Source: a virus. From it: a stretch of DNA of 64,000 bases. Of the stretch, positions 40,990 to 55,533 are shown piece after piece. How positions within the stretch are numbered: position 1 is the first letter of the stretch; each line of letters starts with the position of its first letter. The stretch is from positions 1 through 64,000 of the IMG/VR virus record IMGVR_UViG_3300020437_000005; one strand, given 5' to 3'. Under the pieces are notes generated by a model. The model was given only the letters and a program-made list of their open reading frames with translations. It ran no database searches and was not told the DNA's origin. The translations under genes and the position numbers were made by a program.

Positions 40990-41024
40990 AAAGTTACTCA
41001 CCTCCTGATTGTCTTATTACTGTA
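40990..41024 (+). repeat. 35-bp intergenic repeat, copy 1
   Basis: AAAGTTACTCACCTCCTGATTGTCTTATTACTGTA. Confidence 0.95.
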
Positions 41025-41036
41025 ATCACACATCAC

Positions 41037-41174
41037 ATGAATTCTTATCTGACCGAACAACAAGTTGAAGAACTGGTAAACTTTGACCACATTGAAAAAG
41101 ATCTTGCTGATCTTATCGAAGATGAGGAAAAGTTTGACATCAAAGACTATCTCAACTCCAACATTGACTACTAA
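41037..41174 (+). CDS. Small acidic protein (45 aa)
   Basis: MNSYLTEQQV...; ATG follows repeat copy 1. Confidence 0.55.
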   Translation: MNSYLTEQQVEELVNFDHIEKDLADLIEDEEKFDIKDYLNSNIDY

Positions 41175-41175
41175 A

Positions 41176-41397
41176 ATGAATTTTCCTACCGAAACTGTCA
41201 ACGTGTTACCACATCTGAATGAACTGAAAGAAACTTGGCGTCGTCAAGACTTTCGATTCACAAAAGATCAACAACTTCAATATGATATGCTACTGCAAGC
41301 ACGTCGTGAACGAGTTAGTTTCTTTTATGAAGCAGATCGTGTGTTCAAAGGTCCACGTATTGTAAAGGAGAAGGTTGAACAACAAGAAGAGGAGTGA
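41176..41397 (+). CDS. Hypothetical phage protein
   Basis: MNFPTETVNVLPHL...; starts 1 nt after the upstream stop. Confidence 0.6.
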   Translation: MNFPTETVNVLPHLNELKETWRRQDFRFTKDQQLQYDMLLQARRERVSFFYEADRVFKGPRIVKEKVEQQEEE

Positions 41398-41494
41398 TAT
41401 AATATAAACACCGGGGTTTCCACTACTCTGACCTAGAAGCAGAGACCATGAAGTGGTGTAAAAGAAGAACTTACGTTGATGCAACACCCACTCC

Positions 41495-41530
41495 AATCTC
41501 CTACTATTCTAAATAGTAGGAGATTTTTTT
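41495..41530 (+). terminator. 14-bp hairpin + T-run with embedded late promoter (CTAAATA 41509-41515)
   Basis: AATCTCCTACTATT-CTA-AATAGTAGGAGATT followed by TTTTT. Confidence 0.75.
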
Positions 41531-41539
41531 GTAGACAGA

Positions 41540-42187
41540 ATGAAGACGTTCGTGCAGTTTATGACTGAAGTATATGACAAGGATGTCATGGGTTCTTCAC
41601 AAATTCGTAAAACTGGTGGCGAAACTATTGGTAAAGATCGTAAACAACCAGCATCAATGACTCGCAGAATGAAGGCAGTTGGCGGTGGTAAGATGGAACC
41701 TGTTAAATCACCAGCAAGACGTAAAGATGCTGGACAACAGAAACCAAAATCACAAACACAACAACAACCAACAAAAGAAAGAGGCAGTGCCGAAGTTAAA
41801 CAATCATATGCGGATAAGGTAAAGGCAGAGAGAAAGAAAGCAGCACAAGCAAGAGCGGCAGCGAGAAAGTCTGGTGGTGAGGTGAAGAAAGACACCACAT
41901 CATCAAAAGAAAAAGAGTCTGCAGCAACAAAGTTATTGTCGAAGAAGTCAACCACAGTCAAGAAAGAACCATCGAGAACTAATCGTAAATGGAAACATGA
42001 GAGCGGTGGTGGTATGACAAGGAAGGAAAGAGATTCAGCAAGAAACAAAGAAAAGGGTGCTGCACTGAAAGCAAAGAAGGCAGAATTGATCAAGGGATTT
42101 ACAGATACTCATGGAAGAGCACCGAAGGGAGCAGAGAGAACTAGACTGCTGGGATTAGCACATAAGGCAGCAAAATCTGGATCATAA
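41540..42187 (+). CDS. Lys-rich basic protein with T4-type capsid-targeting-like N-terminus (putative internal head protein)
   Basis: MKTFVQFMTE resembles the T4 internal-protein CTS MKTYQEFIAE; late promoter upstream. Confidence 0.55.
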   Translation: MKTFVQFMTEVYDKDVMGSSQIRKTGGETIGKDRKQPASMTRRMKAVGGGKMEPVKSPARRKDAGQQKPKSQTQQQPTKERGSAEVKQSYADKVKAERKKAAQARAAARKSGGEVKKDTTSSKEKESAATKLLSKKSTTVKKEPSRTNRKWKHESGGGMTRKERDSARNKEKGAALKAKKAELIKGFTDTHGRAPKGAERTRLLGLAHKAAKSGS

Positions 42188-42221
42188 AAGTTACTCACCT
42201 CTTGATCGTCTTAGTTGTACG
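42187..42221 (+). repeat. 35-bp intergenic repeat, copy 2
   Basis: AAAGTTACTCACCTCTTGATCGTCTTAGTTGTACG; overlaps the upstream TAA. Confidence 0.95.
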
Positions 42222-42238
42222 AACATCCTGAGAGGGTC

Positions 42239-42267
42239 TTGTAAGGCGCTCTAAGGTGTGTTATACT
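42239..42267 (+). promoter_or_regulatory. sigma70-type promoter for the helicase
   Basis: TTGTAA-17 nt-TATACT with extended TGn. Confidence 0.65.
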
Positions 42268-42293
42268 GTCCACAGGTATTCATCCCCTATTTC

Positions 42294-43487
42294 GTGACTG
42301 TTACCCTTCGACCGCATCAGCAACGTGTTCTGGACCGTCTTGCAGCATATGATAAGGGTCAAGTCATTGTCCCCACAGGTGGTGGTAAAACCATCTGCAT
42401 GATTCAGGATACTATCAATCAACAGAACAACAGTCAGTCTGGTATTACCACTGTTGTTGTTGCTCCTCGTATTCTTCTTGCTGAACAACTGTGCAGTGAG
42501 TTTATGGAACTTGTTGATGGTTCTTACACTCACATCATGCACGTTCATAGTGGCGAGACACATCACTTCAGTACAACTAATCCAGAAAAGATTGCACTGT
42601 TTGCCAACTGTGCTCGTACTGCTGGTGAGAACCTGATTATCTTCACCACATATAATTCTCTTGATCGTATTCGTCAGGCAGATATTGAAGTCAACGACAT
42701 ATACTTTGACGAGGCACACAACAGTGTCAAGCGTAACTTCTTCCCTGCAACTGAACACTTCAGCAATGAATCTGATCGTTGTTACTTCTTCACTGCGACA
42801 CCAAAGCACAGTCTGACTGTATCTAAACCTGGCATGAATGATGGTTCTGTCTATGGTCAGGTGCTGGTCAATGTTCCTGCTCCTGAGTTGGTTGAGGGTG
42901 GATACATTCTTCCTCCCAAAGTTGTAGTCAAGCAGTTGCCTATGATCAAAGGTCGTAAGGTCGTATTTGCTGATGACTGTGACAATCTATTGGAGACGAT
43001 TGATGACAATAATATCAGCAAGACTCTGATCTGTGCTCGTACAACTCAACAGATCATCAACCTTATCTCTCAGTCACAGTTCTGTACTGAACTCGCTCAA
43101 CGCGGTTATTCTTGGATGACAATTACATCCAAGACTGGTGCAATCGTTGATGGTGAGAAGGTTGACCGTGAAAAGTTCTTTGATACACTGAACTCTTGGG
43201 GTCGTGATCCTGATAAGAAGTTTGTCTGCATCCATCATAGTATCCTGTCTGAGGGTATCAATGTCAATGGGTTGGAGGCAGTTGTGTTTATGCGCAACAT
43301 GGACTACATTGGTATTAGTCAGTCAATCGGTCGTGTGATACGTCTGGGAGGCGATCAGAAGACGTTTGGACTGGTTTGTGTACCAACTTACGATGCTGTT
43401 GGTATTTCCACCGCTCGCAAGGTTCAGGCAGTTGTTGATGTTGTGTTCAATCAAGGTCAACCTGCTATCTCTGAGATTCGCCGCTAA
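42294..43487 (+). CDS. Superfamily 2 DNA/RNA helicase (DEAH, ResIII-like)
   Basis: Q motif 'LRPHQ', Walker A 'PTGGGKT', 'DEAH', 'TATP', 'LSEGIN', 'QSIGRVIR'. GTG 42294 preferred because the track start at 42258 lies inside the promoter. Confidence 0.9.
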   Translation: MTVTLRPHQQRVLDRLAAYDKGQVIVPTGGGKTICMIQDTINQQNNSQSGITTVVVAPRILLAEQLCSEFMELVDGSYTHIMHVHSGETHHFSTTNPEKIALFANCARTAGENLIIFTTYNSLDRIRQADIEVNDIYFDEAHNSVKRNFFPATEHFSNESDRCYFFTATPKHSLTVSKPGMNDGSVYGQVLVNVPAPELVEGGYILPPKVVVKQLPMIKGRKVVFADDCDNLLETIDDNNISKTLICARTTQQIINLISQSQFCTELAQRGYSWMTITSKTGAIVDGEKVDREKFFDTLNSWGRDPDKKFVCIHHSILSEGINVNGLEAVVFMRNMDYIGISQSIGRVIRLGGDQKTFGLVCVPTYDAVGISTARKVQAVVDVVFNQGQPAISEIRR

Positions 43488-43489
43488 TT

Positions 43490-43524
43490 AAAGTTACTCA
43501 CCTCTTGATTGTATCAATAGTGTG
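43490..43524 (+). repeat. 35-bp intergenic repeat, copy 3
   Basis: AAAGTTACTCACCTCTTGATTGTATCAATAGTGTG. Confidence 0.95.
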
Positions 43525-43558
43525 AGGCACACATCTCACAAAGTTTTTTTTTTCCTTT

Positions 43559-44164
43559 ATGTCTAAATCAATCATCACAATGCAAGGTGCGATTGATCGC
43601 ATGAATAAGATCAAAGCATCAAGTTCAAAAAAGATTGAAGTGTATGCAAAGCGTTGCTACATTGATTTCATGAATCCTGAGATTATCAGTTGGTGGAACG
43701 ATGAGAGCAAAGACACAAATGTTGGTCGCGCTATCACTCGTCCTTTCTATGATCTGGTTCACTCCTGTTCTATTCCAACTGGACTGATTACAGAGTCTGC
43801 ATTTAAGTCTGAAAAGAAAACCAAAGATCACTGCTTCCGCCCACAATTTGTCTATCGGTTTATGTTAGACAATCACGAACAATTTGAAGACTTTTCTGTC
43901 TTTCGTGAGTGGTTTGTTATGTGCTGTTCAACTATTCTCGTCACTCCAAACGAAAATGATCGTTTGAGTAGTGAAGGAACCAAGAATCATGGTGGCGAAT
44001 ATGTTATCATGAGTCCTACAGATAAACAGTATGTTCGTGCAAATCTTGACCTCTTCACTCATAGCAATGAGCGTAGTTGGGCAAAGCGTAGTCTGACTCC
44101 AGCATCGAATGTTATCAATGCTCCCAGCGCACTTCTGGAGTATGAAAAGGTCTTCATCTCTTGA
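43559..44164 (+). CDS. Hypothetical protein, possible His-Me finger (HNH-like) nuclease
   Basis: 'TKDHCFRP' ... 'ILVTPNENDRL' resembles the DH..P / xxVTxxEN pattern; weak. Confidence 0.45.
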   Translation: MSKSIITMQGAIDRMNKIKASSSKKIEVYAKRCYIDFMNPEIISWWNDESKDTNVGRAITRPFYDLVHSCSIPTGLITESAFKSEKKTKDHCFRPQFVYRFMLDNHEQFEDFSVFREWFVMCCSTILVTPNENDRLSSEGTKNHGGEYVIMSPTDKQYVRANLDLFTHSNERSWAKRSLTPASNVINAPSALLEYEKVFIS

Positions 44165-44169
44165 CTCTA

Positions 44170-44204
44170 AATGTTACTCACCTCTTAATCGTATTAGTAG
44201 TATG
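44170..44204 (+). repeat. 35-bp intergenic repeat, copy 4 (ends in the next gene's ATG)
   Basis: AATGTTACTCACCTCTTAATCGTATTAGTAGTATG. Confidence 0.9.
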
Positions 44205-45101
44205 AAGAACACTCATCTACAACATCCAGAGGACGCCATTCTCACTGGTGATCTCTCTGTTCTCGATTGGTTCGCTGCACCAGACAGTCACATCAGCACG
44301 AAAATGGATGGTGCTCCTGCTATTGTCTGGGGCACTAATCCTGCAACTGGTAACAAGTTTGTGGGAACAAAATCTGTCTTCAACAAAGTCAAAATCAAAA
44401 TCAATGAAACGCATACTGACATTGATCGGAATCATTCTGGGTCTGTTGCTGACATACTACACCATTGCCTTGATTACCTTCCTGATGTCGGTGGGATTAT
44501 TCAAGGTGATTTTATTGGGTTTGGTGGTAGTGATACTTTTTGCCCCAATACGATTACTTACACGTTCCCTGAGGTAATTCGAGAGAACATCATCATTGCT
44601 CCTCACACATATTACACTGCTGATAAAGATCTGCGTGATGCTGTTGCTCATCCCTTAAAGTTCAGAATCACTGATACGATGTATTGTAAGATCGTGCAAC
44701 CTGAGGTCAAGTTGCATCCCTACCGTGAGGATTTGTATGATATGAGTTTGTTTGCCAAGCAAATGTCCACACTATGTGAGTTTGTGGATGACAAGCAAGC
44801 AACAAAAATCAAAAAATCCATCAACGACTGCATCCGTGATGGTTATGAGGTGGACGAGAATGAAATTGCACAAAAAAACGATTGTGACATCAATCTCATT
44901 CGATTGTGGAAGTTGGTTGCAACTATGAAGGACGATCTCTTCTGGTATATCACCGAAGACGATCTGATTGACTGTAAGATTGGTGATGAAGAGTCTATGC
45001 ACGAAGGTTATGTTATCAGCAACCAATATGGTGTGTTCAAAGTTGTTGACCGACCTACATTTTCTCGTGCAAACTTCACCATTCAGAAAAGTTGGTCCTG
45101 A
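44202..45101 (+). CDS. Ligase/capping-enzyme-like covalent nucleotidyltransferase (DUF6267-like)
   Basis: Motif I 'TKMDG', 'QGDF', motif IV 'EGYVI', motif V 'FKVV'. Start at MKNTHLQHPED avoids overlap with the upstream gene. Confidence 0.6.
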   Translation: MKNTHLQHPEDAILTGDLSVLDWFAAPDSHISTKMDGAPAIVWGTNPATGNKFVGTKSVFNKVKIKINETHTDIDRNHSGSVADILHHCLDYLPDVGGIIQGDFIGFGGSDTFCPNTITYTFPEVIRENIIIAPHTYYTADKDLRDAVAHPLKFRITDTMYCKIVQPEVKLHPYREDLYDMSLFAKQMSTLCEFVDDKQATKIKKSINDCIRDGYEVDENEIAQKNDCDINLIRLWKLVATMKDDLFWYITEDDLIDCKIGDEESMHEGYVISNQYGVFKVVDRPTFSRANFTIQKSWS

Positions 45102-45102
45102 G

Positions 45103-45137
45103 AAAGTTACTCACCTTTCGATTGTACCAGTAGTGTA
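45103..45137 (+). repeat. 35-bp intergenic repeat, copy 5
   Basis: AAAGTTACTCACCTTTCGATTGTACCAGTAGTGTA. Confidence 0.95.
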
Positions 45138-45153
45138 AGAACGGAGGAAACTG

Positions 45154-45486
45154 ATGCTATTTGTATCAGGAAAATCACAACACACAAAACTCACATTCAA
45201 GGTCTACGATTTCTTCCGTGAGTTGTATGATGTCAAGTCAGATGTTGAGGTGTTTCACACTGATCTGACTGATGACAATGCCTTCGGTTTTACCGAGGAG
45301 AATGGTGATGAACAATTCATTCAGATTCACAATGATCTGAGTGAGAAAGATTTTACCATCACATTGCTGCACGAACTTGTGCATGTGATGCAGAACGAAA
45401 ATGGTATCACTGATGATAAGATACGAGAAGAAGAGGCATATATGTTTGAGGACATTCTTTACAATCAGTACCTGCAATCTGTCTGA
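45154..45486 (+). CDS. Small zincin-like metallopeptidase
   Basis: 'TLLHELVHVMQ' HExxH with downstream 'EEEA'; GGAGG SD. Confidence 0.7.
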   Translation: MLFVSGKSQHTKLTFKVYDFFRELYDVKSDVEVFHTDLTDDNAFGFTEENGDEQFIQIHNDLSEKDFTITLLHELVHVMQNENGITDDKIREEEAYMFEDILYNQYLQSV

Positions 45487-45490
45487 CCCC

Positions 45491-45525
45491 AAAGTTACTC
45501 ACCTCTTGATCGTACCAGTAGTGTA
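45491..45525 (+). repeat. 35-bp intergenic repeat, copy 6
   Basis: AAAGTTACTCACCTCTTGATCGTACCAGTAGTGTA. Confidence 0.95.
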
Positions 45526-45537
45526 AGCACTCAACCA

Positions 45538-45876
45538 ATGCAAGTTACTCAAACCAAACCCCAATTCCTGACCGAAGCACTCATCGAAGTGCTCAACAAT
45601 CAGTGGAAAGTCGATGCGATCGAATCCGGTCATTCTGTTTATACTCAACTTGAGTATGAAGTTGGTCGCAAGTACATCAAAGTTTGGTCATATCTTGTTA
45701 GTGATGGTGAGAAAATGAGAGGTCGTTCTTGCTGGATGTTCGTTGACAAGAACACTGGCGAATGTTACAAACCAGCATCATACAAAGCACCTGCTAAGTA
45801 TGTCCGCTATCTGATCACTCAGTTAGCAGATAATCCTCACATTTGTGATGCCTATGGTTCGTTCTTGTATCTCTGA
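45538..45876 (+). CDS. Conserved hypothetical phage protein
   Basis: 'GRKYIKV...FVDKNTG..YKPASYKAPAK' motif widespread in T4-like phages. Confidence 0.65.
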   Translation: MQVTQTKPQFLTEALIEVLNNQWKVDAIESGHSVYTQLEYEVGRKYIKVWSYLVSDGEKMRGRSCWMFVDKNTGECYKPASYKAPAKYVRYLITQLADNPHICDAYGSFLYL

Positions 45877-45878
45877 TT

Positions 45879-46139
45879 ATGTTCTCTGACACCAATCGTC
45901 AACTCCGCAAACTTTCTATCTACAAACCCATGCAATTCCAAGTCACACAAATTGAGTTTGATTTCACTGACGATGTGTTTCCTGATGAAGCACTGCCAGT
46001 AGAAGAACAAGAACTTATTGTTGCAGAAACTTGTAATACTATCTGGGAGGCATGTGATGAGGATGATCTCATCGAGGAGATCACATCTGCATCAGGTTGG
46101 TGCATCAAATCCGTTGATTATGTTCACGTTCTTAACTGA
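45879..46139 (+). CDS. Hypothetical acidic phage protein
   Basis: 'IEFDF...WEA.DEDDLIEEIT..SGWCI'; start may be 45930. Confidence 0.6.
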   Translation: MFSDTNRQLRKLSIYKPMQFQVTQIEFDFTDDVFPDEALPVEEQELIVAETCNTIWEACDEDDLIEEITSASGWCIKSVDYVHVLN

Positions 46140-46144
46140 AACTC

Positions 46145-46312
46145 ATGATTACTTCCAAAGCACAAATGCTCCGCATTATGAAACAATGCGATGGAGCAGA
46201 CACTCTCACTCGTGAACAAAAGTTTCAAGTTTTCTGCAATGTTTGCGATAACATGCTCAAATCTGGTAAAATGTCCAAAGCAACACACAAACGATTCACG
46301 GAGATCTGGTGA
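46145..46312 (+). CDS. Hypothetical protein (55 aa)
   Basis: Translated manually (MITSKAQMLR...FTEIW). Confidence 0.55.
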   Translation: MITSKAQMLRIMKQCDGADTLTREQKFQVFCNVCDNMLKSGKMSKATHKRFTEIW

Positions 46313-46521
46313 TGACTAAAGACGTTACAAACTCACCAAAAGATTGGGAGGATTTCTGGTACTCACCCGAGAAATATGGTTCTTGGGAGTATTACAACTC
46401 CGAGAGTGAGGGACGTGACGTTCCTGAGATTGATCCTGAAATCTTACGCTATGTCGATTATGTTTTGGGCAATTCTCCTTATCCACCATCATTTAAGAGA
46501 AACTCAAAACTCTCAGAATGA
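46309..46521 (+). CDS. Hypothetical phage protein
   Basis: Coupled to the upstream stop. Confidence 0.5.
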   Translation: MMTKDVTNSPKDWEDFWYSPEKYGSWEYYNSESEGRDVPEIDPEILRYVDYVLGNSPYPPSFKRNSKLSE

Positions 46522-46530
46522 CAGGTTTTC

Positions 46531-46565
46531 AAAGTTACTCACCTCTTGATTGTCCTATTAGTGTA
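46531..46565 (+). repeat. 35-bp intergenic repeat, copy 7
   Basis: AAAGTTACTCACCTCTTGATTGTCCTATTAGTGTA. Confidence 0.95.
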
Positions 46566-46596
46566 AGCACCACACCAAACCAATTCTTTTCTCATC

Positions 46597-46803
46597 ATGA
46601 CCAAGTTTCGTGAGTTTGCAACAGAAGCAATGTATTTTTGTGCTTGTTTCGGTACACTCTCTCTTGTGACTTTGTTCTGCACAGTCAACATGAATACGAG
46701 TTCCTCTATCATGAATCCTGTTGATGTTGAAACTGTATCAAATCCTTCTGATACTTCACCTGCTCGTGTTGACTATCTGACCAACATTCAAGAGGGTAAC
46801 TGA
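46597..46803 (+). CDS. Small membrane-anchored protein
   Basis: N-terminal hydrophobic segment. Confidence 0.55.
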   Translation: MTKFREFATEAMYFCACFGTLSLVTLFCTVNMNTSSSIMNPVDVETVSNPSDTSPARVDYLTNIQEGN

Positions 46804-46980
46804 ATGAAACCCTATCCGCTTGGAATTGACAACCCCATTCTGATTAAGCAGGTGTGGGGTTCTACTGACTGGGCATTGTATTGGAGAAAAGATCACATTA
46901 AGATCGCCACATTTTCTAATCAATTCACTGCCTACGACATGCGCCGTTCTATTCTTCGTGCTCTTGGTTACGATGCTTGA
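46804..46980 (+). CDS. Hypothetical protein (58 aa)
   Basis: Translated manually (MKPYPLGIDNP...GYDA). Confidence 0.55.
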   Translation: MKPYPLGIDNPILIKQVWGSTDWALYWRKDHIKIATFSNQFTAYDMRRSILRALGYDA

Positions 46981-47137
46981 TCTCATTCTTGCCTACGAAT
47001 CTGGTGAACTTGACAATGACCAGATTGTTGAATTGTTCCAACAGATCTATGACAACAAAGCATACCTTTGGTTGCAAGGTCATTACGATCGCACACTTGC
47101 TCATCTAATTGACTCCGGTCTCATTCACATTGATTGA
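46973..47137 (+). CDS. Conserved small phage protein (54 aa)
   Basis: 'AYESGEL...ELFQ...WLQGHY.R...LID.G' motif. Confidence 0.6.
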   Translation: MLDLILAYESGELDNDQIVELFQQIYDNKAYLWLQGHYDRTLAHLIDSGLIHID

Positions 47138-47146
47138 CACAAACTC

Positions 47147-47335
47147 ATGAACTACGATGTTGACGAACGCCAAACCTCCATTGATAACATGGAGGACACA
47201 TTATTTGAAAAGATGAAGTTTGCCTTTATTCGTGAGAATGTGGGTGATGCTGAAGCGATCAAGAATGAGTGGGTTGTTGATGAAGACGACGAACCGGATA
47301 ATTTTCTCTTTGTTCCCAATCTTACACTAGACTGA
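47147..47335 (+). CDS. Hypothetical acidic protein
   Basis: Packed ORF. Confidence 0.55.
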   Translation: MNYDVDERQTSIDNMEDTLFEKMKFAFIRENVGDAEAIKNEWVVDEDDEPDNFLFVPNLTLD

Positions 47336-47529
47336 TGACACAACTCGACTTTGATCGTTCGATGATGGAACTTAAACTGCGTAAACAGACTCTACTGGAT
47401 GAGATCGCGCAGATCAATGCTTCTATAGAGTTTCTTCAAGAACAGAAGAATAACATCGTAGGTGAACAACAGGAGAGGACAGAAGAGATCTATAATGATA
47501 TACTGGGAGATGAGTATTTCTCAGAATAA
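47335..47529 (+). CDS. Hypothetical coiled-coil protein
   Basis: TGATG coupling. Confidence 0.55.
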   Translation: MTQLDFDRSMMELKLRKQTLLDEIAQINASIEFLQEQKNNIVGEQQERTEEIYNDILGDEYFSE

Positions 47530-47592
47530 TAACATAACTCTCCGAGAGTTTCCGAGATTCGAGCGACGCGAGCGCCGATTTTTTTCATTCTC

Positions 47593-47627
47593 AAAGTTAC
47601 TCACCTTCTGATTGTACCAGTTGTATG
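47593..47627 (+). repeat. 35-bp intergenic repeat, copy 8 (ends in the next gene's ATG)
   Basis: AAAGTTACTCACCTTCTGATTGTACCAGTTGTATG. Confidence 0.95.
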
Positions 47628-47852
47628 AGAATCACTTCCACCATGGTCCCTGTCCCTGACGACATCCGCGCCGCTGCCGTTCTTGAACAGATCAAAGATT
47701 GCAAGGTTGAAGATCCCTTTGGCAACCGATACAGCATTGTCGATGTTAAGTGCTTCAACGGTAAAGTGCGATCCATTGGTCTCAAAGGCGCTGATGGTGT
47801 TGTTATGTACGCCTCGAAGAATGTCTTTCTTGAAATGACATCTATTGCTTAA
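47625..47852 (+). CDS. Hypothetical protein
   Basis: ATG embedded in repeat copy 8; no SD. Confidence 0.55.
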   Translation: MRITSTMVPVPDDIRAAAVLEQIKDCKVEDPFGNRYSIVDVKCFNGKVRSIGLKGADGVVMYASKNVFLEMTSIA

Positions 47853-47855
47853 TTC

Positions 47856-48038
47856 ATGAAACTTCGTAAAATTCACATGAAAACGATTCTGATTGTGTTA
47901 GTTGGTGTGCTGGTTTGGACGAACAACGATGCACGCACATTCACTGCAAAAGCACTCTATCGTGCTGCTGAGTTTGTATCACCCGAACCTGAATCTCGTT
48001 CGATCGGTGAAACAATCGATGAAATCTTCTCTCGTTAA
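47856..48038 (+). CDS. Small membrane protein
   Basis: 'MKTILIVLVGVLVW' hydrophobic segment; start may be 47877. Confidence 0.55.
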   Translation: MKLRKIHMKTILIVLVGVLVWTNNDARTFTAKALYRAAEFVSPEPESRSIGETIDEIFSR

Positions 48039-48046
48039 TTGACATC

Positions 48047-48247
48047 ATGCAAGAAACTAAGTTCAATCTCTATGGCGAACATATCCGTCCTAATGGTCAT
48101 CAACAGTGGGACATTCTGAGTTACATTGCTGAGACAAGAGAGGATGCGATTGCTGCATGTAGGAAGAACAATCCTTACTTTCACATTATCACAATTCAGG
48201 TAGATGATACATCACCTGAAGTCGTGAGGTTGCAATCTCTGATTTGA
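48047..48247 (+). CDS. Hypothetical phage protein
   Basis: Packed ORF. Confidence 0.55.
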   Translation: MQETKFNLYGEHIRPNGHQQWDILSYIAETREDAIAACRKNNPYFHIITIQVDDTSPEVVRLQSLI

Positions 48248-48281
48248 AAGTTACTCACCTCCTGATCGTACCAGTAGTGTA
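48247..48281 (+). repeat. 35-bp intergenic repeat, copy 9
   Basis: AAAGTTACTCACCTCCTGATCGTACCAGTAGTGTA; overlaps the upstream TGA. Confidence 0.95.
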
Positions 48282-48292
48282 AGCACTCAACC

Positions 48293-48454
48293 ATGACAGA
48301 CCAAACCTACTCCGAAATCCTCAAAGTTTGGAACGACGAAACTCCTGACGATTTTGCAATCTTCAGTGAACTCTACTACCAAATGTTCGGTGGAGAGTTT
48401 GACATTCCTTACATCACACAGTCTACCACTTCTGCATTTTTCCCCTACGATTGA
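48293..48454 (+). CDS. Small acidic protein (53 aa)
   Basis: Translated manually (MTDQTYSEIL...FPYD). Confidence 0.55.
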   Translation: MTDQTYSEILKVWNDETPDDFAIFSELYYQMFGGEFDIPYITQSTTSAFFPYD

Positions 48455-48472
48455 TCAACAGGAGTTAGTTTG

Positions 48473-48646
48473 ATGACTTATTCTGAACTTTTGGTGCAAC
48501 TGCTTCAACTTAATACAGAACAGTTGAGGCAAGACGTTACAGTCTATGATTCTGACACTGATGAACACTATCCTATGAAGGAGTTTGTGTATGCAACTGA
48601 TGCACAAAATGTTCTAGACACTGACCACCCTATTCTTTCTTTCTGA
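48473..48646 (+). CDS. Small protein (57 aa)
   Basis: AGGAG SD; MTYSELL...LDTDHPILSF. Confidence 0.55.
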   Translation: MTYSELLVQLLQLNTEQLRQDVTVYDSDTDEHYPMKEFVYATDAQNVLDTDHPILSF

Positions 48647-48649
48647 ACC

Positions 48650-49060
48650 ATGTCTACCAACGCAAGAATCGCAATTCAACTGTCAGACAAACCCGGTTAC
48701 TATGTCTCTGTTTATCATCACTGGGATGGTTATCCGCAGTGGTTGGGTAAGACTCTCGGACAACACTTTGACTCTCGTAAGTTAGCATCCGATCTGATTG
48801 ATGGTGGAGACATGTCATGCTGCTGGTCAGATACAGACTGGAACATGAAGAAACTCCCAACCAATCGTCCTCTCTATTATTCTGAGCGTGGTGAGGATTG
48901 CCCTCCTCAACTTGCAACCACTACAGACGATTTGTTCGAGCAATGTGAGAACTGTGGTGCAGAGTATGTTTACATCTACACTCCAGATCACGGTTGGGTA
49001 TCACACAGTGTCTATGATTATACTTCTGGCAAATTTCAATCAGCAACTCTCTCTAACTAA
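48650..49060 (+). CDS. Conserved hypothetical phage protein (HxDGYP family)
   Basis: 'MST.ARI...SVYHHWDGYP.WLG..L...LIDGGD.S...EY.Y.Y...GW'. Confidence 0.65.
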   Translation: MSTNARIAIQLSDKPGYYVSVYHHWDGYPQWLGKTLGQHFDSRKLASDLIDGGDMSCCWSDTDWNMKKLPTNRPLYYSERGEDCPPQLATTTDDLFEQCENCGAEYVYIYTPDHGWVSHSVYDYTSGKFQSATLSN

Positions 49061-49069
49061 CATTCAATC

Positions 49070-49291
49070 ATGACAACTTCCACTTTTCTCACTAACATGA
49101 ACGACGAGCAACTTGACAAACTCAAAGACAACTATGCCTACCTGATTGTGGATGGTATGGATATGGATTCTCTCATTACTTTCGCTGTCGAAACTGTTGC
49201 TCACAATTTAGAAACCTGGACAGAGGAAGAAATCAAGGAAGAGATTCTCGATCATTATGGTGAAGAAACTCTGAATGATCTTCTATCCTAA
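49070..49291 (+). CDS. Hypothetical acidic phage protein
   Basis: 'Y..IVDGMD..L..F' motif. Confidence 0.6.
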   Translation: MTTSTFLTNMNDEQLDKLKDNYAYLIVDGMDMDSLITFAVETVAHNLETWTEEEIKEEILDHYGEETLNDLLS

Positions 49292-49393
49292 AATCACACA
49301 AATTTAAGTATAATCACTCACAAAAATGATTCAAAATCAATTAAAAATGGTTTAATAAATATACTTTCGTTTTCTATCTCTCTTGTTACTTGA

Positions 49394-49435
49394 CAGTTAC
49401 TCCGTGGTTGTTTGACAGTATCTGCGGAGTAATTG
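49394..49435 (+). repeat. Inverted repeat/hairpin containing the GTTACTC core
   Basis: CAGTTACTCCGTGG...CTGCGGAGTAATTG, 14 bp with 3 G.U pairs on the + strand. Confidence 0.7.
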
Positions 49436-49474
49436 CACTGATAAATGTACGAACTTATAGTGATCTTGGACCTC

Positions 49475-49503
49475 ATTCTATCACCACTCCGCGAAAATGT
49501 CAA
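49475..49503 (-). promoter_or_regulatory. Strong sigma70-type promoter on the minus strand
   Basis: Reverse strand reads TTGACA-17 nt-TAGAAT with extended TGn. Confidence 0.75.
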
Positions 49504-49576
49504 GTCCCCCGCAATCAGAAATCCCACACAAAACACTTCGTAATATAAGGAGGACTCATAAATAGTCTGCGGTAGA

Positions 49577-49605
49577 TTGACAGATTCTCTCTGACGATCT
49601 ATAAT
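49577..49605 (+). promoter_or_regulatory. Consensus sigma70 promoter
   Basis: TTGACA-17 nt-TATAAT. Confidence 0.85.
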
Positions 49606-49634
49606 AACAAAGTAACACTCCCACCCTTCCAACC

Positions 49635-49808
49635 ATGCCTGCTATCTATCACCAAGCACAGAAGAGTAAGTATCGCATCACCCTGGAAATCGAAGCAATG
49701 AGTGACTTCGACCCGCATAATATCAACTGGGATCGATTGTTTAAGTTGGAAGGTTCGGAGAATTGTGATGCTTATATAGAGGACCTGAGTACACCTGACC
49801 GTTGGTAA
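49635..49808 (+). CDS. Hypothetical protein (57 aa)
   Basis: Translated manually (MPAIYHQAQK...TPDRW). Confidence 0.6.
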   Translation: MPAIYHQAQKSKYRITLEIEAMSDFDPHNINWDRLFKLEGSENCDAYIEDLSTPDRW

Positions 49809-49821
49809 TCGCAGTCGCTTT

Positions 49822-49856
49822 AAAGTTACTCACCTCTTGATCGTACCAGTGGTGTA
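49822..49856 (+). repeat. 35-bp intergenic repeat, copy 10
   Basis: AAAGTTACTCACCTCTTGATCGTACCAGTGGTGTA. Confidence 0.95.
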
Positions 49857-49880
49857 AGAAACCAACAGAAACAAACAAAC

Positions 49881-50054
49881 ATGCTCACCCGATCTGATCT
49901 TCTCACCGTTCGCGACTACTTCTCCGGAGATGAGTGGGACCTGATTGATGCTGCTCTCAGTGAGTATCAGGACCATTTTGACACTGATGAAGATGCAATC
50001 GTGTTCAACACATTGCAATCGAAACTCGCAGGATTGTTCCGTATTGTAGACTGA
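49881..50054 (+). CDS. Small acidic protein (57 aa)
   Basis: Translated manually (MLTRSDLLTV...FRIVD). Confidence 0.55.
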   Translation: MLTRSDLLTVRDYFSGDEWDLIDAALSEYQDHFDTDEDAIVFNTLQSKLAGLFRIVD

Positions 50055-50096
50055 GAATCGGTACTCTAAGTAACACTCAACTATCACTCTCACATC

Positions 50097-50411
50097 ATGC
50101 GTAAGATCGAAACTCTGATGAACAAAGCAATCGCGGACGGCAAAGATTGGTCGCTCGATAACACTAGAGTCGAGTCCTACGGTGACATCGCCCACGTCTA
50201 TCTTTACGGCAAACTTATCTCAAGAATCGGCGAAGGTTGGATACAATTATTCGACGGAGGTAAGCAATCGAAGACCACCAAATCTCGCCTGAATGCTGTA
50301 CTCGAAGCGAATGGATTGCCGGGTGAACGTGTCTTTCAACGCAATCGTCAGTGGTTCGTTAACTACAACGGACATCCAATTCCTTTCTTCTCAGGTATGC
50401 GTATGAATTGA
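50097..50411 (+). CDS. Conserved hypothetical cyanophage protein
   Basis: 'MRKIE..M..AI...W...NT.V...FDGG.QS.TTKSRLNA...VFQ...WF'. Confidence 0.65.
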   Translation: MRKIETLMNKAIADGKDWSLDNTRVESYGDIAHVYLYGKLISRIGEGWIQLFDGGKQSKTTKSRLNAVLEANGLPGERVFQRNRQWFVNYNGHPIPFFSGMRMN

Positions 50412-50495
50412 TAAAGTATCGGTAACCTGGGCACGTTAGCGTTGCATCGGTAAGTCCCAGGTCTTCATTCTTCACTAACACTTTTCTCTTTTATT

Positions 50496-50630
50496 ATGTC
50501 TCGCTCAACTGCACTCGGTCTTCTCAACATCGGCGCTGACGGTAATGAAATCCTTGCCATTCTCGATGTTATCGCTGAGATCGAATCCGAGAAGGTTATC
50601 GACGAAATCGCAGATCTCCTGTTTAATTGA
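50496..50630 (+). CDS. Small protein (44 aa)
   Basis: MSRSTALGLL..G.EIL.ILD.I; translated manually. Confidence 0.5.
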   Translation: MSRSTALGLLNIGADGNEILAILDVIAEIESEKVIDEIADLLFN

Positions 50631-50634
50631 TACG

Positions 50635-50823
50635 ATGATCACCAACGTCGCTACAGCGTCCCGTCTAGATCTTGAGATCGCTGACACTCGGGGACAGATC
50701 AAGTACACACGTTTGAAACCACAATCACCTCGTCGTTCGTTGTTAGTCTTGACACAAACTAAGGGTCTCCGAACTAACACGAATCGAGGTAAGATTAACG
50801 ACAAACACGCTACATCGATCTGA
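50635..50823 (+). CDS. Small basic protein
   Basis: ATG 4 nt after the upstream stop; the track start at 50545 overlaps the previous ORF. Confidence 0.5.
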   Translation: MITNVATASRLDLEIADTRGQIKYTRLKPQSPRRSLLVLTQTKGLRTNTNRGKINDKHATSI

Positions 50824-50839
50824 CACGATTGCAGAGGGG

Positions 50840-50868
50840 TTGACAACACTCAATCCCTCTGATATACT
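50840..50868 (+). promoter_or_regulatory. sigma70 promoter embedded in an inverted repeat
   Basis: TTGACA-17 nt-TATACT; CAGAGGGGTTGA/TCAATCCCTCTG stem at 50832-50861. Confidence 0.75.
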
Positions 50869-51016
50869 GACAGTAGGTATCGCAGTGTTGGGCGTTTATC
50901 GTCGTTCGTTGATGCGTCGCGTGTATATAAAAAAACCCAACTTCCCTAACCTACAACGGACCGAATTCGAGAGGTATATATAATTCAACTTTTGTTTTGA
51001 TGCGGAGAAAAAAATT

Positions 51017-51202
51017 TTGCCCAGAAAAATTTCGCCCCAAAAGGTTTATCACATATACGCAAAGAATGAGTGTTTATACAAGAATCTAACAGAAGGACAA
51101 TTTAAGAAGACATGGATAACCCTCAATGGTATGGTCGGAATCATGAAAACCGATTATGTGGTTGAGGATTTGTCATATGAGGAGATAATAGTATCTGATT
51201 GA
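51017..51202 (+). CDS. Conserved hypothetical cyanophage protein
   Basis: 'YHIYAK..CLY..L....F...W..L..MVG.MKTDY...DLSYEE'; TTG start. Confidence 0.55.
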   Translation: MPRKISPQKVYHIYAKNECLYKNLTEGQFKKTWITLNGMVGIMKTDYVVEDLSYEEIIVSD

Positions 51203-51227
51203 CAGTGCATATATAAACTGTTATAAT
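51199..51227 (+). promoter_or_regulatory. Consensus sigma70 promoter
   Basis: TTGACA-17 nt-TATAAT with extended TGn. Confidence 0.85.
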
Positions 51228-51250
51228 TGATATGAAGTTAATTCAAACTT

Positions 51251-52027
51251 ATGGCTAAAGGATTTACTGTTAAGGCAAATGCCCCCACAGCGCCTAAAGA
51301 GGAAGAGTGGGACTATGACGCGATTAAAGAGCGTATGAAAGGGAAGACGATTGTATTCTGTCTTCCAGGAAGAGGATGTTCGTATACCTTTCTAAAAAAC
51401 TTTGTACAGATGTGTTTTGATCTGGTACAGAATGGAATGGCTATTCAGATCAGTCAAGACTATTCATCCATGGTGAACTTCGCACGTTGTAAGTGTTTAG
51501 GTGCAAATGTTCTCCGTGGTCCTAATCAAGCACCATGGGACGGTAAACTGCAGTATGACTATCAACTGTGGATTGACAGTGATATTGTCTTTAACTCTCA
51601 GAAGTTCTGGCAACTTTGTGATCTTGCAGTTCCTGCTGAAGGTGAAGAACGTGATATCACCGCTGGTTGGTATTGCACAGAAGACGGTCAAACATCTTCT
51701 GTTGCACACTGGTTGGACGAAGAAGACTTCCGTGGTAATGGTGGTGTCATGAATCATGAAACACTGGAAACCATGGCAAATCGTCAGAAACCATTCACTG
51801 TAGATTACACAGGCTTTGGATGGGTCATGATTAAGAATGGCGTATTTGAGAATGACAAAATGGTTTATCCATGGTTTGCGCCTAAAATGCAGGTATTTGA
51901 AAGTGGTGAAGTTCAAGACATGTGCGGCGAGGATGTCTCATTCTGTCTAGATGCAAAAGAAGCAGGTTATGAAATCTGGTGCGACCCACGCATTCGTGTC
52001 GGTCATGAAAAGACTCGTGTAATTTGA
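51251..52027 (+). CDS. GT-A fold glycosyltransferase-like protein
   Basis: 'WIDSDI' DxD motif; 'TGFGW..IK.GVFE', 'GEDVSFC', 'DP.I.VGH.K'. Confidence 0.7.
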   Translation: MAKGFTVKANAPTAPKEEEWDYDAIKERMKGKTIVFCLPGRGCSYTFLKNFVQMCFDLVQNGMAIQISQDYSSMVNFARCKCLGANVLRGPNQAPWDGKLQYDYQLWIDSDIVFNSQKFWQLCDLAVPAEGEERDITAGWYCTEDGQTSSVAHWLDEEDFRGNGGVMNHETLETMANRQKPFTVDYTGFGWVMIKNGVFENDKMVYPWFAPKMQVFESGEVQDMCGEDVSFCLDAKEAGYEIWCDPRIRVGHEKTRVI

Positions 52028-52038
52028 GGTAAAGACTT

Positions 52039-52179
52039 ATGGCAATGCGTTCAAAGACCGGAGATCTGATTGTTCCAACTCCGAAAAACACTCGTCAAGG
52101 GACGGGCAAACATACCAAATATGCCGCAACGTCTCGTAATAAAGCGCGAAAGCGTTACCGTGGCCAGGGAAGAGGTTAA
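52039..52179 (+). CDS. Small basic peptide (46 aa)
   Basis: GAGGT SD; 'PK.TRQG.GKHTK...RN..RK.YRGQG'. Confidence 0.6.
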   Translation: MAMRSKTGDLIVPTPKNTRQGTGKHTKYAATSRNKARKRYRGQGRG

Positions 52180-52208
52180 ATAAGAGAAGAGTTTATAAAA
52201 TTTAATAT

Positions 52209-52865
52209 ATGTCTTGTTTAATCTCTAACTTACCTTCAGAAGAAGTATGGGTCCGAAAAGAGTATCTTACGGATCATCAGAGTGGACACGGACAATTTGT
52301 AAAGGGCGTTTGGGTATCTGTTAAGTCGATACCTGGACGCGCTTTTTATTTTGAGACATATTTGCCAGAGTATGCTGCGATGTATGATAAATTACCAATC
52401 GCCGCGTTTCTCTCGGAACCAAAGACACCAGATCCAGATATGGATCTTCCAAACTTACAATTCTGGAATTGCATGGACTACGGTGTAGTGACCGTAGATA
52501 AGAAGTTTATAGGTTCTATGGACTTTGAGTGCTACACAAGAGATCATGGACCTCAGAGGGGATCCTACGTATGTACCATAGACAATTATCATCATGATCC
52601 AGACTACGTTGACTATGCAACAAGTGAAAATCCTGCAGAACATAAATCACACAATCTAATTCAACTAGATAATGGTCAGTTTTGTTTATATCCAAATAAT
52701 AGACTAAGAATATATGACAATAGTTTAACTCCGAAGACTCCAAAAACTCCAGACTTCAAAGTGTCTACCATAGAATATCAAGTTGAACGTGGATATGATC
52801 GTTTAGGAATGGGTAATGAAGAAGAATATTTCTGGAAAACTTCGAAAGAGAGAGAAAATAAATAG
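52209..52865 (+). CDS. Conserved hypothetical T4-like cyanophage protein
   Basis: 'L..NLP...WVRKEYL.D...GHG.F...SIPGRA.YFE...EHK...LDNGQF..YPNNR'; TAAATA upstream. Confidence 0.65.
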   Translation: MSCLISNLPSEEVWVRKEYLTDHQSGHGQFVKGVWVSVKSIPGRAFYFETYLPEYAAMYDKLPIAAFLSEPKTPDPDMDLPNLQFWNCMDYGVVTVDKKFIGSMDFECYTRDHGPQRGSYVCTIDNYHHDPDYVDYATSENPAEHKSHNLIQLDNGQFCLYPNNRLRIYDNSLTPKTPKTPDFKVSTIEYQVERGYDRLGMGNEEEYFWKTSKERENK

Positions 52866-52923
52866 TTTACTGGGATAGAACCCCTAAAAAAGTTCTGATT
52901 TGTTCAAATCAGAGGAAAATCTC

Positions 52924-53058
52924 ATGGCTAACTCTCCTGTAGATAAGAGTAAAGATTTCATCAAGTCTGGCATGACACTAATTACAGAACTTGCAAGCGA
53001 TAAACATTTAAAGAAGTCAAAAAAAGTTGATAAAACTAAGATAAATAAGTCAGAATAA
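52924..53058 (+). CDS. Small basic protein (44 aa)
   Basis: GAGGA SD; MANSPVDKSK...; translated manually. Confidence 0.5.
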   Translation: MANSPVDKSKDFIKSGMTLITELASDKHLKKSKKVDKTKINKSE

Positions 53059-53067
53059 TAATATTTC

Positions 53068-53469
53068 ATGCCTCTAGAAAGGGTAAGTCAAGGTTTTAAA
53101 GACATAAGCATGTCGTTTCAGAGTAACCCTCTGAACAAAGATCTTCTTGCCATCAAAAATGAGAACGCAATTGCAAGGTCAATCAAGAATATAGTTTTCA
53201 CAGAACCCGGAGAAAAGTTTTTTAATCCAGATTTCGGGTCTAAACTCTATTCGATTCTATTCGAGAATATTGATGACATCTCAGCAATTAAAATTAAAGA
53301 CCAAATTGAACAATCTATAAGAAACTTTGAACCCAGAGTTAATTTAATTGAAGTCGAAGTGTTCCCAGATTTTGACAATAACGGTTTTGATGTGAAAATC
53401 ATTTATAGAATCATAGGAGTTGACATTGCTCCACAAGAATTACAGTTTATCTTGCAACCAACCAGGTAA
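53068..53469 (+). CDS. Baseplate wedge subunit gp25
   Basis: 'AI.RSIKN.VFT.PGE.FF.PDFGS...I.NFEPRV' GPW/gp25 pattern; ATAAATA at 53041-53047. Confidence 0.85.
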   Translation: MPLERVSQGFKDISMSFQSNPLNKDLLAIKNENAIARSIKNIVFTEPGEKFFNPDFGSKLYSILFENIDDISAIKIKDQIEQSIRNFEPRVNLIEVEVFPDFDNNGFDVKIIYRIIGVDIAPQELQFILQPTR

Positions 53470-53471
53470 AA

Positions 53472-55514: not shown

Positions 55515-55533
55515 AGACGGATAGATAAAAAAT

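Follow-up and report, generated by a model that had tools for sequence, protein, structure and literature searches.

Ten copies of a direct repeat, all on the same strand, punctuate a region of small genes in the viral contig IMGVR_UViG_3300020437_000005, which belongs to a T4-like cyanomyophage, and each of them is probably a copy of one phage promoter, of a class other than sigma70, that heads a transcription unit of this variable region. The window analysed here is the first 64 kb of this IMG/VR contig of 82,120 bases, whose completeness is estimated at 38%. From sequence comparison we infer the identity of the promoter, its transcription start and the pairing of the host RNA polymerase with a module-recognising factor. 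In the proposed mechanism, the host RNA polymerase would read the promoter with the help of a factor that recognises a genome-specific module within it, and transcripts would begin at position 33 of the repeat (with T at −1 and a purine at +1), which would place the module at about −29 to −19. Two units (starting at 44202 and 47625) would then be expressed from leaderless mRNAs whose first codon lies inside the repeat, and the other eight from mRNAs with C/A-rich leaders of 14–39 nt. As a side effect, a direct repeat of ~40 bp in a recombination-proficient phage would offer a favoured, non-exclusive seam for the loss, gain and movement of units.

The repeat and its genomic setting

Tail-fibre and virion genes lie upstream of the repeat region, the last of them near 35.8 kb, and baseplate wedge genes follow downstream from 53.5 kb; a small-gene region is found at the equivalent location in the phages Syn9, Sf-CH5, S-SM2 and SynMITS9220M01. 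When the segment from 40.5 to 50.5 kb was compared with isolated phages, the nucleotide similarity was patchy, with 27 matching records that all belong to Synechococcus phages or cyanophages. The best record reaches 14% coverage at 75% identity, and the similarity resides mostly at the gene of a UvsW-type helicase.

The repeats form one family, with copies on the + strand at 40990, 42187, 43490, 44170, 45103, 45491, 46531, 47593, 48247 and 49822 (start-to-start spacings of 1197, 1303, 680, 933, 388, 1040, 1062, 654 and 1575). A first-pass annotation of the window had reported these ten same-strand copies, and a repeat search, the count of an 11-mer and a weight matrix agree on them. The 11-mer, GTTACTCACCT, was found 10 times in the window when one mismatch was allowed, every time exactly and on the + strand, whereas shuffled sequences gave a mean of 1.03 and a maximum of 4 occurrences, with 0 of 100 shuffles reaching 10; in the whole 82,120-base record the count is 10 forward and 0 reverse. 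With a 42-nt weight matrix the ten copies score 54–69 bits, and the runner-up in the contig reaches −1.9 on the + strand and −17 on the − strand. Neither scan revealed an eleventh copy on either strand of the 82-kb contig, which extends to the whole contig the earlier statement that no full copy occurs elsewhere in the window. The columns that had been listed as invariant (4–14, 19–20, 22–23, 27, 29 and 32) are so, as are positions 1, 2 and 36, and all ten copies share G22, T23, T29, T32 and a purine at 33. The length that had been given, 35 bp, needs correction: the repeat is real, but its conserved block is nearer 40 nt, extending from about position −2 to position 39.

All ten copies are intergenic and lie on the coding strand, 0–63 nt past a stop codon and 33–72 nt ahead of the next start. 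As annotated, nine of them begin 0–13 nt past the upstream stop in the list of open reading frames (ORFs) and two overlap it, the first A of copies 2 and 9 being the last base of the upstream stop codon; copy 8 sits 63 nt past the stop of ORF 47335–47529. The description of the repeat as devoid of sigma70 boxes and stem-loops also stood up, since none of the 28 sigma70-like sites between 40000 and 51000 coincides with a copy and nine of the ten copies fold no better than shuffles (copy 3, with z = −2.2, is the sole one that folds better), with no conserved secondary structure or hairpin-forming symmetry. Terminator-like sites number 4 in the 11 kb, against 7.3 expected from shuffles, and none stands directly ahead of a copy.

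A family of repeats in T4-like cyanophages

The window repeat has relatives beyond this contig, as a sequence variant within an extensive family of intergenic repeats that T4-like cyanomyophages carry. Common to the family is a core, with YGT at positions 21–23, T..T at 29–32 and then a purine at 33. Members are present in SynMITS9220M01, in S-SM2 (where the 5′ half is different) and in more than 100 IMG/VR contigs. A 45-nt copy used as the query matched one cultured phage, SynMITS9220M01, at low significance, and a consensus copy compared with 50,697 phage records matched no record beyond it; the complete, 190-kb genome of this phage carries 12 copies of a sister motif (12 forward, 0 reverse) at 36.3–50.0 kb, around the same helicase. 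In the S-SM2 record, 10 copies with the family core lie at 42693–57142, and a G-rich upstream module, AAGGGGGGTCG(C/T), replaces that of the window. A 14-base pattern retrieved at least 113 stretches from IMG/VR, including 45 locus-strands with 2–12 copies each, and a scan with the core only retrieved at least 120. One 88-kb contig has 10 copies inside 8 kb, and the copies of relatives are one-stranded and limited to one region of 8–14 kb. In the family they cluster around the UvsW-type helicase, between tail-fibre and baseplate genes, an arrangement to which the window conforms.

At positions 17–20, the linker between module and core, the window has TGAT or TAAT, and the common form in the family is AAAG or AAAC. 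The window form (TGAT) was found in one other IMG/VR contig among the matches listed, a contig that stops within its array; the close-relative comparison of the window array covered two units. Syn9 and Sf-CH5 gave 0 real matches to the window element. A search with module and linker against the genomes of 185,579 species returned 4 single matches in unrelated metagenome-assembled genomes and 0 in cyanobacteria; the four are at chance level, because 18 fixed bases were sought in 596 Gb.

The full-text literature that was searched held no published description of the motif, with Doron et al. 2016 and its supplements lying outside the searched text, so that prior publication is possible; the letters of GTTACTCACCT occurred in these full texts in non-phage papers only. 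The genome announcement of SynMITS9220M01 makes no mention of a repeat, motif or promoter, and the promoter searches reported in the accessible part of Sullivan et al. 2010 concern sigma70, T4-late, Pho and NtcA only.

Start codons and the predicted 5′ end

The position of the start codon relative to the repeat was followed in 195 non-redundant copies from contigs with at least two copies. Dropped from this set were strands that matched only once (69 of 114 locus-strands, where chance is the likely cause), duplicates of the same 130 nt, and copies within 10 nt of the start or 400 nt of the end of a locus. Position 33 is a purine in 193 of the 195, and an ATG occupies positions 33–35 in 78, opening a frame of at least 40 codons in 76 of these. 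The earliest ATG that opens an ORF lies at position 33 in 76 copies, at 40–46 in none and at 47–57 in 81; in the remaining copies it lies at 35–39 (9 copies), before 33 (5) or at 63 and beyond (20), or there is none (4). An independent set, fetched with the core and filtered by the same rules, has a purine at 33 in 348 of 350 copies and an ATG at 33 in 169 of 352, of which 154 open a frame.

A maximum of starts without any leader, separated by a gap from leaders that measure 14 nt or more, is the pattern of bacteria rich in leaderless mRNAs, and a pyrimidine at −1 with a purine at +1 is typical of transcription initiation. The gap in the start-codon positions, together with T32 and the purine at 33, thus suggests that the 5′ end of the mRNA lies at motif position 33, or no more than a few bases 5′ of it, an estimate drawn from start-codon statistics. 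Conservation spans about −35 to +6 relative to position 33 and then stops; with almost none further downstream, this extent would be that of a promoter footprint.

In the window, position 1 of the Pfam profile of DUF6267 aligns to residue 3 of the protein read from 44202, which argues that the ATG at 44202 is the true start and that the transcript must include it. GenBank gene starts, placed independently by annotators, fall on the built-in ATG in S-SM2 (SSM2_041, 070, 071 and 075) and in SynMITS9220M01 (SynMITS9220M01_059). The window conforms to the rule of the family, namely a start codon that coincides with position 33 or follows it by 14 nt or more: sorted, the start codons of its units are at positions 33, 33, 47, 48, 48, 52, 60, 67, 70 and 72, and the predicted leaders of copies 1–10 measure 15, 39, 37, 0, 19, 15, 34, 0, 14 and 27 nt. 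In base composition the leaders favour C and A, with 37% A and 33% C where the background for C is 19%. The ten copies are as follows:

Copy 1, 40990..41028, + strand: predicted +1 at 41022 (G); first start ATG 41037 (position 48) after a 15-nt leader, opening a 45-aa ORF
Copy 2, 42187..42225, + strand: predicted +1 at 42219 (A); UvsW-type helicase 42258–43487, with GTG at position 72
Copy 3, 43490..43528, + strand: predicted +1 at 43522 (G); gene 43559–44164
Copy 4, 44170..44208, + strand: ATG at position 33 (44202) opens the DUF6267 gene 44202–45101; predicted leaderless mRNA
Copy 5, 45103..45141, + strand: predicted +1 at 45135; single-gene unit 45154–45486, M78/DUF6782-like peptidase
Copy 6, 45491..45529, + strand: predicted +1 at 45523; gene 45538–45876 (DUF7717), then three small ORFs
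Copy 7, 46531..46569, + strand: predicted +1 at 46563; unit of ~5–6 small ORFs from 46597
Copy 8, 47593..47631, + strand: ATG at position 33 (47625) opens a 75-aa ORF, 47625–47852; predicted leaderless mRNA
Copy 9, 48247..48285, + strand: predicted +1 at 48279; ATG 48293 (position 47)
Copy 10, 49822..49860, + strand: predicted +1 at 49854; ATG 49881 (position 60)

The earlier suggestion that the repeat serves as a phage-specific expression signal gains support from this start-codon geometry and from a repeat that is neither sigma70-like nor folded, as far as the sequence can speak to it.

Core and module

The 11-nt module upstream of the core (GTTACTCACCT in the window, at positions 4–14) is invariant in the ten copies, so that in the window the diversity of the module is 0 and that of the core 0.26 per site. 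A first comparison of diversities had mixed in loci fetched with the module, which are biased to the window module, and it was repeated on core-fetched loci only. In 59 such contigs that have 4 copies or more, the module differs by no more than one mismatch from the dominant one of its contig in 302 of 360 copies, and it is less diverse than the core in 41 of the 59; the contigs have 31 dominant modules in about 8 groups, with a mean between-contig difference of 0.50 per site. At the putative promoter of orthologous DUF6267 genes, the core and the built-in ATG are common to 66 sites, which between them carry 31 different 11-mers. The only positions conserved among the modules as a whole are G8 and C12, of which the first is C in the window. 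The module also resembles the 3′ end of 16S rRNA (CACCTCC), which we take to be a coincidence.

A module that is kept uniform inside each genome and exchanged outright from one genome to another suggests co-evolution with a factor that reads it. The module might even be the private “address” of a lineage, replaced in concert between lineages as the core and the orthologous genes behind it persist, and read by a fast-evolving, phage-supplied specificity factor that directs the host RNA polymerase to a non-sigma70 promoter of leaderless mRNAs, a proposal that is tentative and that we regard as doubtful. The phage would synthesise this factor very early in infection or carry it in the virion, as a functional counterpart of the MotA/AsiA system absent from these phages, and a private address, if true, might prevent phages in the same cell from switching on one another's genes. 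A search of the contig, SynMITS9220M01 and S-SM2 for MotA and AsiA domains found neither, but no positive control was detected in it, so that it is unproven; a T7-type RNA polymerase domain was likewise not found in these three, again with no positive control detected. According to PMC5780444, T4-like cyanophages lack motA and asiA. The two-part architecture with a genome-private module may be new.

A module that is more uniform than the core within genomes would also suit an operator, to which a repressor or shut-off factor binds and silences the units later, the promoter itself lying elsewhere or consisting of the core only. With +1 at 33, the module would occupy the space between the customary −35 and −10 elements, where operators classically lie. 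This idea largely overlaps with a promoter rather than excluding it, and no alternative promoter is found upstream, where there are only the unconserved ends of unrelated genes; that the repeat is an operator and nothing else appears distinctly improbable.

Gain and loss of units

As judged from alignments, relatives preferentially gain and lose blocks of genes at the repeats, in a shuffling like that of the PeSL elements of coliphages. An all-against-all comparison was made of 49 repeat-bearing sequences, in which high-scoring segment pairs of at least 85% (or 80%) identity over at least 250 (or 150) nt were kept, ends within 150 nt of the end of a sequence were dropped, and, for the ends of homology blocks, each pair was counted in both directions. 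Of the internal ends of these blocks, 39 of 132 on the left coincide with a repeat (−20 to +10 of position 1), as do 41 of 126 on the right (+20 to +60). The clean indels number 29: in 11 the indel extends from one repeat to another, with one copy remaining, in 1 only one end lies at a repeat, and in 17 neither end does; two reciprocal repeat-to-repeat cases were seen between contigs that are 95–98% identical. The repeat stands at 205 of the 666 gene starts inside arrays and therefore ~9.5% of random indels between gene junctions would be expected to run from repeat to repeat; the 11 of 29 found correspond to a nominal p = 4e-5, for events that are not independent. The check that had been proposed earlier, on breakpoints in the repeat, thus has a positive outcome, in that gains and losses among relatives often have both ends there. 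The order of the backbone units (helicase, DUF6267, DUF7717...) is kept among relatives, and against this backbone units are inserted, lost and moved, such as the M78-like peptidase gene 45154–45486, which forms its own unit between DUF6267 and DUF7717 here and lies elsewhere in relatives.

The first-pass annotation had gone further and proposed a dedicated cassette-delimiting element, that is, a site-specific recombination site that builds an integron-like, expandable array. Repeat-to-repeat gains and losses, and a peptidase gene that is a single-gene unit here and is placed elsewhere in relatives, would fit such a system, as would a joint between two copies in an RNA-library contig, were it not likely a misassembly (see below). 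We give this proposal very little credence and abandon it: matches to the tyrosine recombinase family PF00589 number 0 in the 82-kb contig, which is 38% complete, with the positive control detected in 14 of 14 genomes; neither inverted repeats nor hairpins are seen in the repeat; 17 of the 29 indels have no end in it; the backbone units keep their order across relatives; and a start codon within the repeat and copies confined to one strand are signs of expression. Ordinary homologous recombination between the repeated, putative promoters, such as has been proposed for PeSLs (PMC4122927), is enough to explain the pattern, with no dedicated system.

The joint in question connects 45535 to 49869 (the ends of copies 6 and 10), skips 4333 nt and doubles back over 261 nt, and the copies at this joint share 29 identical bases. 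It is likely a misassembly, the alternative being a relative without the four units, and it was not used as evidence.

Weighing the promoter reading

Four marine RNA libraries share 5–7% of sampled words with the window, their material being assembled contigs in which DNA carry-over is possible. Several of these contigs bridge copies of the repeat, as they might if the repeat acted at the level of RNA, either as an endonuclease site (with a cut between 32 and 33) or as a translation-initiation element, by which start codons are created or exposed, in long polycistronic early RNAs. The small number of terminator-like sites in the array (4 against 7.3 expected) points the same way, and the start-codon geometry fixes a 5′ end, not whether that end is primary or processed. 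However, some 35 nt are conserved upstream of the predicted 5′ end and almost none downstream, which is the shape of a promoter and not of a cleavage site; there is no conserved secondary structure; start codons that vary in position from 33 to 72 are ill-suited to a translation operator; and the pyrimidine at −1 and purine at +1 are those of initiation. We consider an RNA-level signal to be unlikely. The promoter reading also draws on the strand and position rules of the copies and on the presence, in other phages, of a different promoter-type repeat ahead of homologous genes (see below).

Several points weigh against the reading of the repeat as a promoter. With +1 at 33, the segment from −12 to −7 is YGTnyy (with G at −11), which is not of the sigma70, extracytoplasmic function (ECF), MotA or T4-late type and fits no known sigma factor family. 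The placement of the start at position 33 derives entirely from start-codon statistics, and the missing ATGs at 40–46 may partly reflect the C/A-rich composition there. Gene conversion, instead of a reader protein, could explain the uniformity of the module within genomes. The indel events are not independent, with related contigs counted repeatedly, and 17 of 29 lie away from the repeats. The RNA-library contigs that span copies belong here too, and assembled contigs cannot show transcript starts, levels or strand. A sigma70 −10 box, TAnnnT at 29–34 with a start near 41, was considered as a competing reading and rejected, because it conflicts with the ATG at 33.

Other candidates were rejected: an ECF-type reading (AAC...CGT) was ruled out by spacing, and the motif sequence contains neither an NtcA box (GTA-N8-TAC) nor a MotA box.

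Further features of the array and the window

Other signals in and around the array are listed in order of position, followed by one feature of the structural region:

41495–41525: perfect 14-bp hairpin with a T-run within unit 1, directly 5′ of the 215-aa gene 41540–42187; it looks like a terminator mid-way in a repeat-headed unit
42239–42267: sigma70-like site TTGTAA-17-TATACT with TG, between copy 2 and the helicase start at 42258
43521–43540: 7-bp hairpin with a T-run, starting at the predicted 5′ end of copy 3, ahead of the 43559 gene; its role may be that of an attenuator or of a hairpin in the leader
49503–49475, − strand: host-type promoter TTGACA-17-TAGAAT, an 11/12 match, in an orientation opposite to all genes
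49577–49605, + strand: host-type promoter TTGACA-17-TATAAT, a 12/12 match
50840–50868, + strand: host-type promoter TTGACA-17-TATACT with TG, just past the array
11732–28420, + strand: one ORF of 5,562 codons in the structural region

These host-type promoters, within the array and immediately past it, are almost perfect matches, and the region would thus mix two promoter classes.

Significance

Among the viruses that infect the main primary producers of the ocean, T4-like cyanophages rank with the most abundant, and how these phages start their gene programme without the known regulators of T4 is only partly understood. If the promoter reading is true, many of their small genes would start from a promoter unlike any host class, often on leaderless mRNAs, and its lineage-specific module would call for a reader protein. 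The repeat would also be a handle for annotation, as the built-in ATG would fix true starts and the repeat would mark transcription units in thousands of uncultured contigs. The idea of repeated promoters as seams of modular gene shuffling would be extended from coliphages to marine cyanophages.

Comparison with known systems

The middle promoters of T4 combine a MotA box near −30 with a sigma70 −10 box and are read through sigma appropriation by MotA/AsiA. The window element is like them in having a specific upstream box in place of a −35 box, which would be read by a phage factor, and is unlike them in that it has no TGCTT box and in that its −10, if +1 is at 33, is not sigma70-like. Promoters of T7-type RNA polymerases have a long contiguous conserved block that ends just past the initiating purine and is specific to the phage lineage; the repeat is likewise a single long, lineage-specific block that runs to just past a purine, but it is longer (about −35 to +6). 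Unlike integrons and their attC arrays, the contig, at 38% completeness, has no match to an IntI-type tyrosine recombinase, and the repeat has no imperfect inverted repeats that fold into hairpins.

Viral intergenic direct repeats are also known from the halovirus HF2, where, according to the accessible part of PMC8707807, they were shown to be promoters; HF2 differs in being an archaeal virus, with unrelated AT-rich motifs that have no built-in start codon. The PeSL elements of T4-type coliphages and vibriophages (Comeau et al. 2014, PMC4122927) are, in the part of that paper that was available, repeated promoter elements between small ORFs of hyperplastic regions, with indels and exchanges among close relatives, which is also the situation of the window element. 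However, a PeSL consists of a near-consensus sigma70 promoter and a stem-loop terminator, and the window element has neither and is therefore not a PeSL. The available text of PMC4122927 makes no mention of “cyano” or “Synechococcus”.

The syntenic region of Syn9 and Sf-CH5 contains a different intergenic repeat of ~60–80 nt, which is found in 98 IMG/VR stretches and whose copies in the two phages are located as follows:

Syn9 locus: copies at 3304, 5573, 8015 and 10011
Sf-CH5 locus: copies at 14355, 15239, 16915 and 18009

This Syn9-type repeat has a host-like promoter (TTG..-N17-TATTCT), an upstream dyad (GTGnCAGT... / ...GTGkCmAC) and AAGAGTCAAAGG before the start codon. In 130 non-redundant copies, the start codon lies 17–24 nt past CTATAAG in 116, and there is no built-in ATG. 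Doron et al. in 2016 reportedly described a novel early-gene regulatory element in Syn9 and P-TIM40, said to be abundant in genomes and metagenomes. The window element would be like it in being a motif of non-T4 type before small genes, in the same region of T4-like cyanophages, and may be unlike it in that Syn9, the phage of that report, has no window element and carries the Syn9-type repeat. In one contig of the RNA libraries, the 3′ end of a Syn9-type element lies ahead of a homologue of the 45538 gene, and the two types of repeat therefore hold equivalent places before homologous genes.

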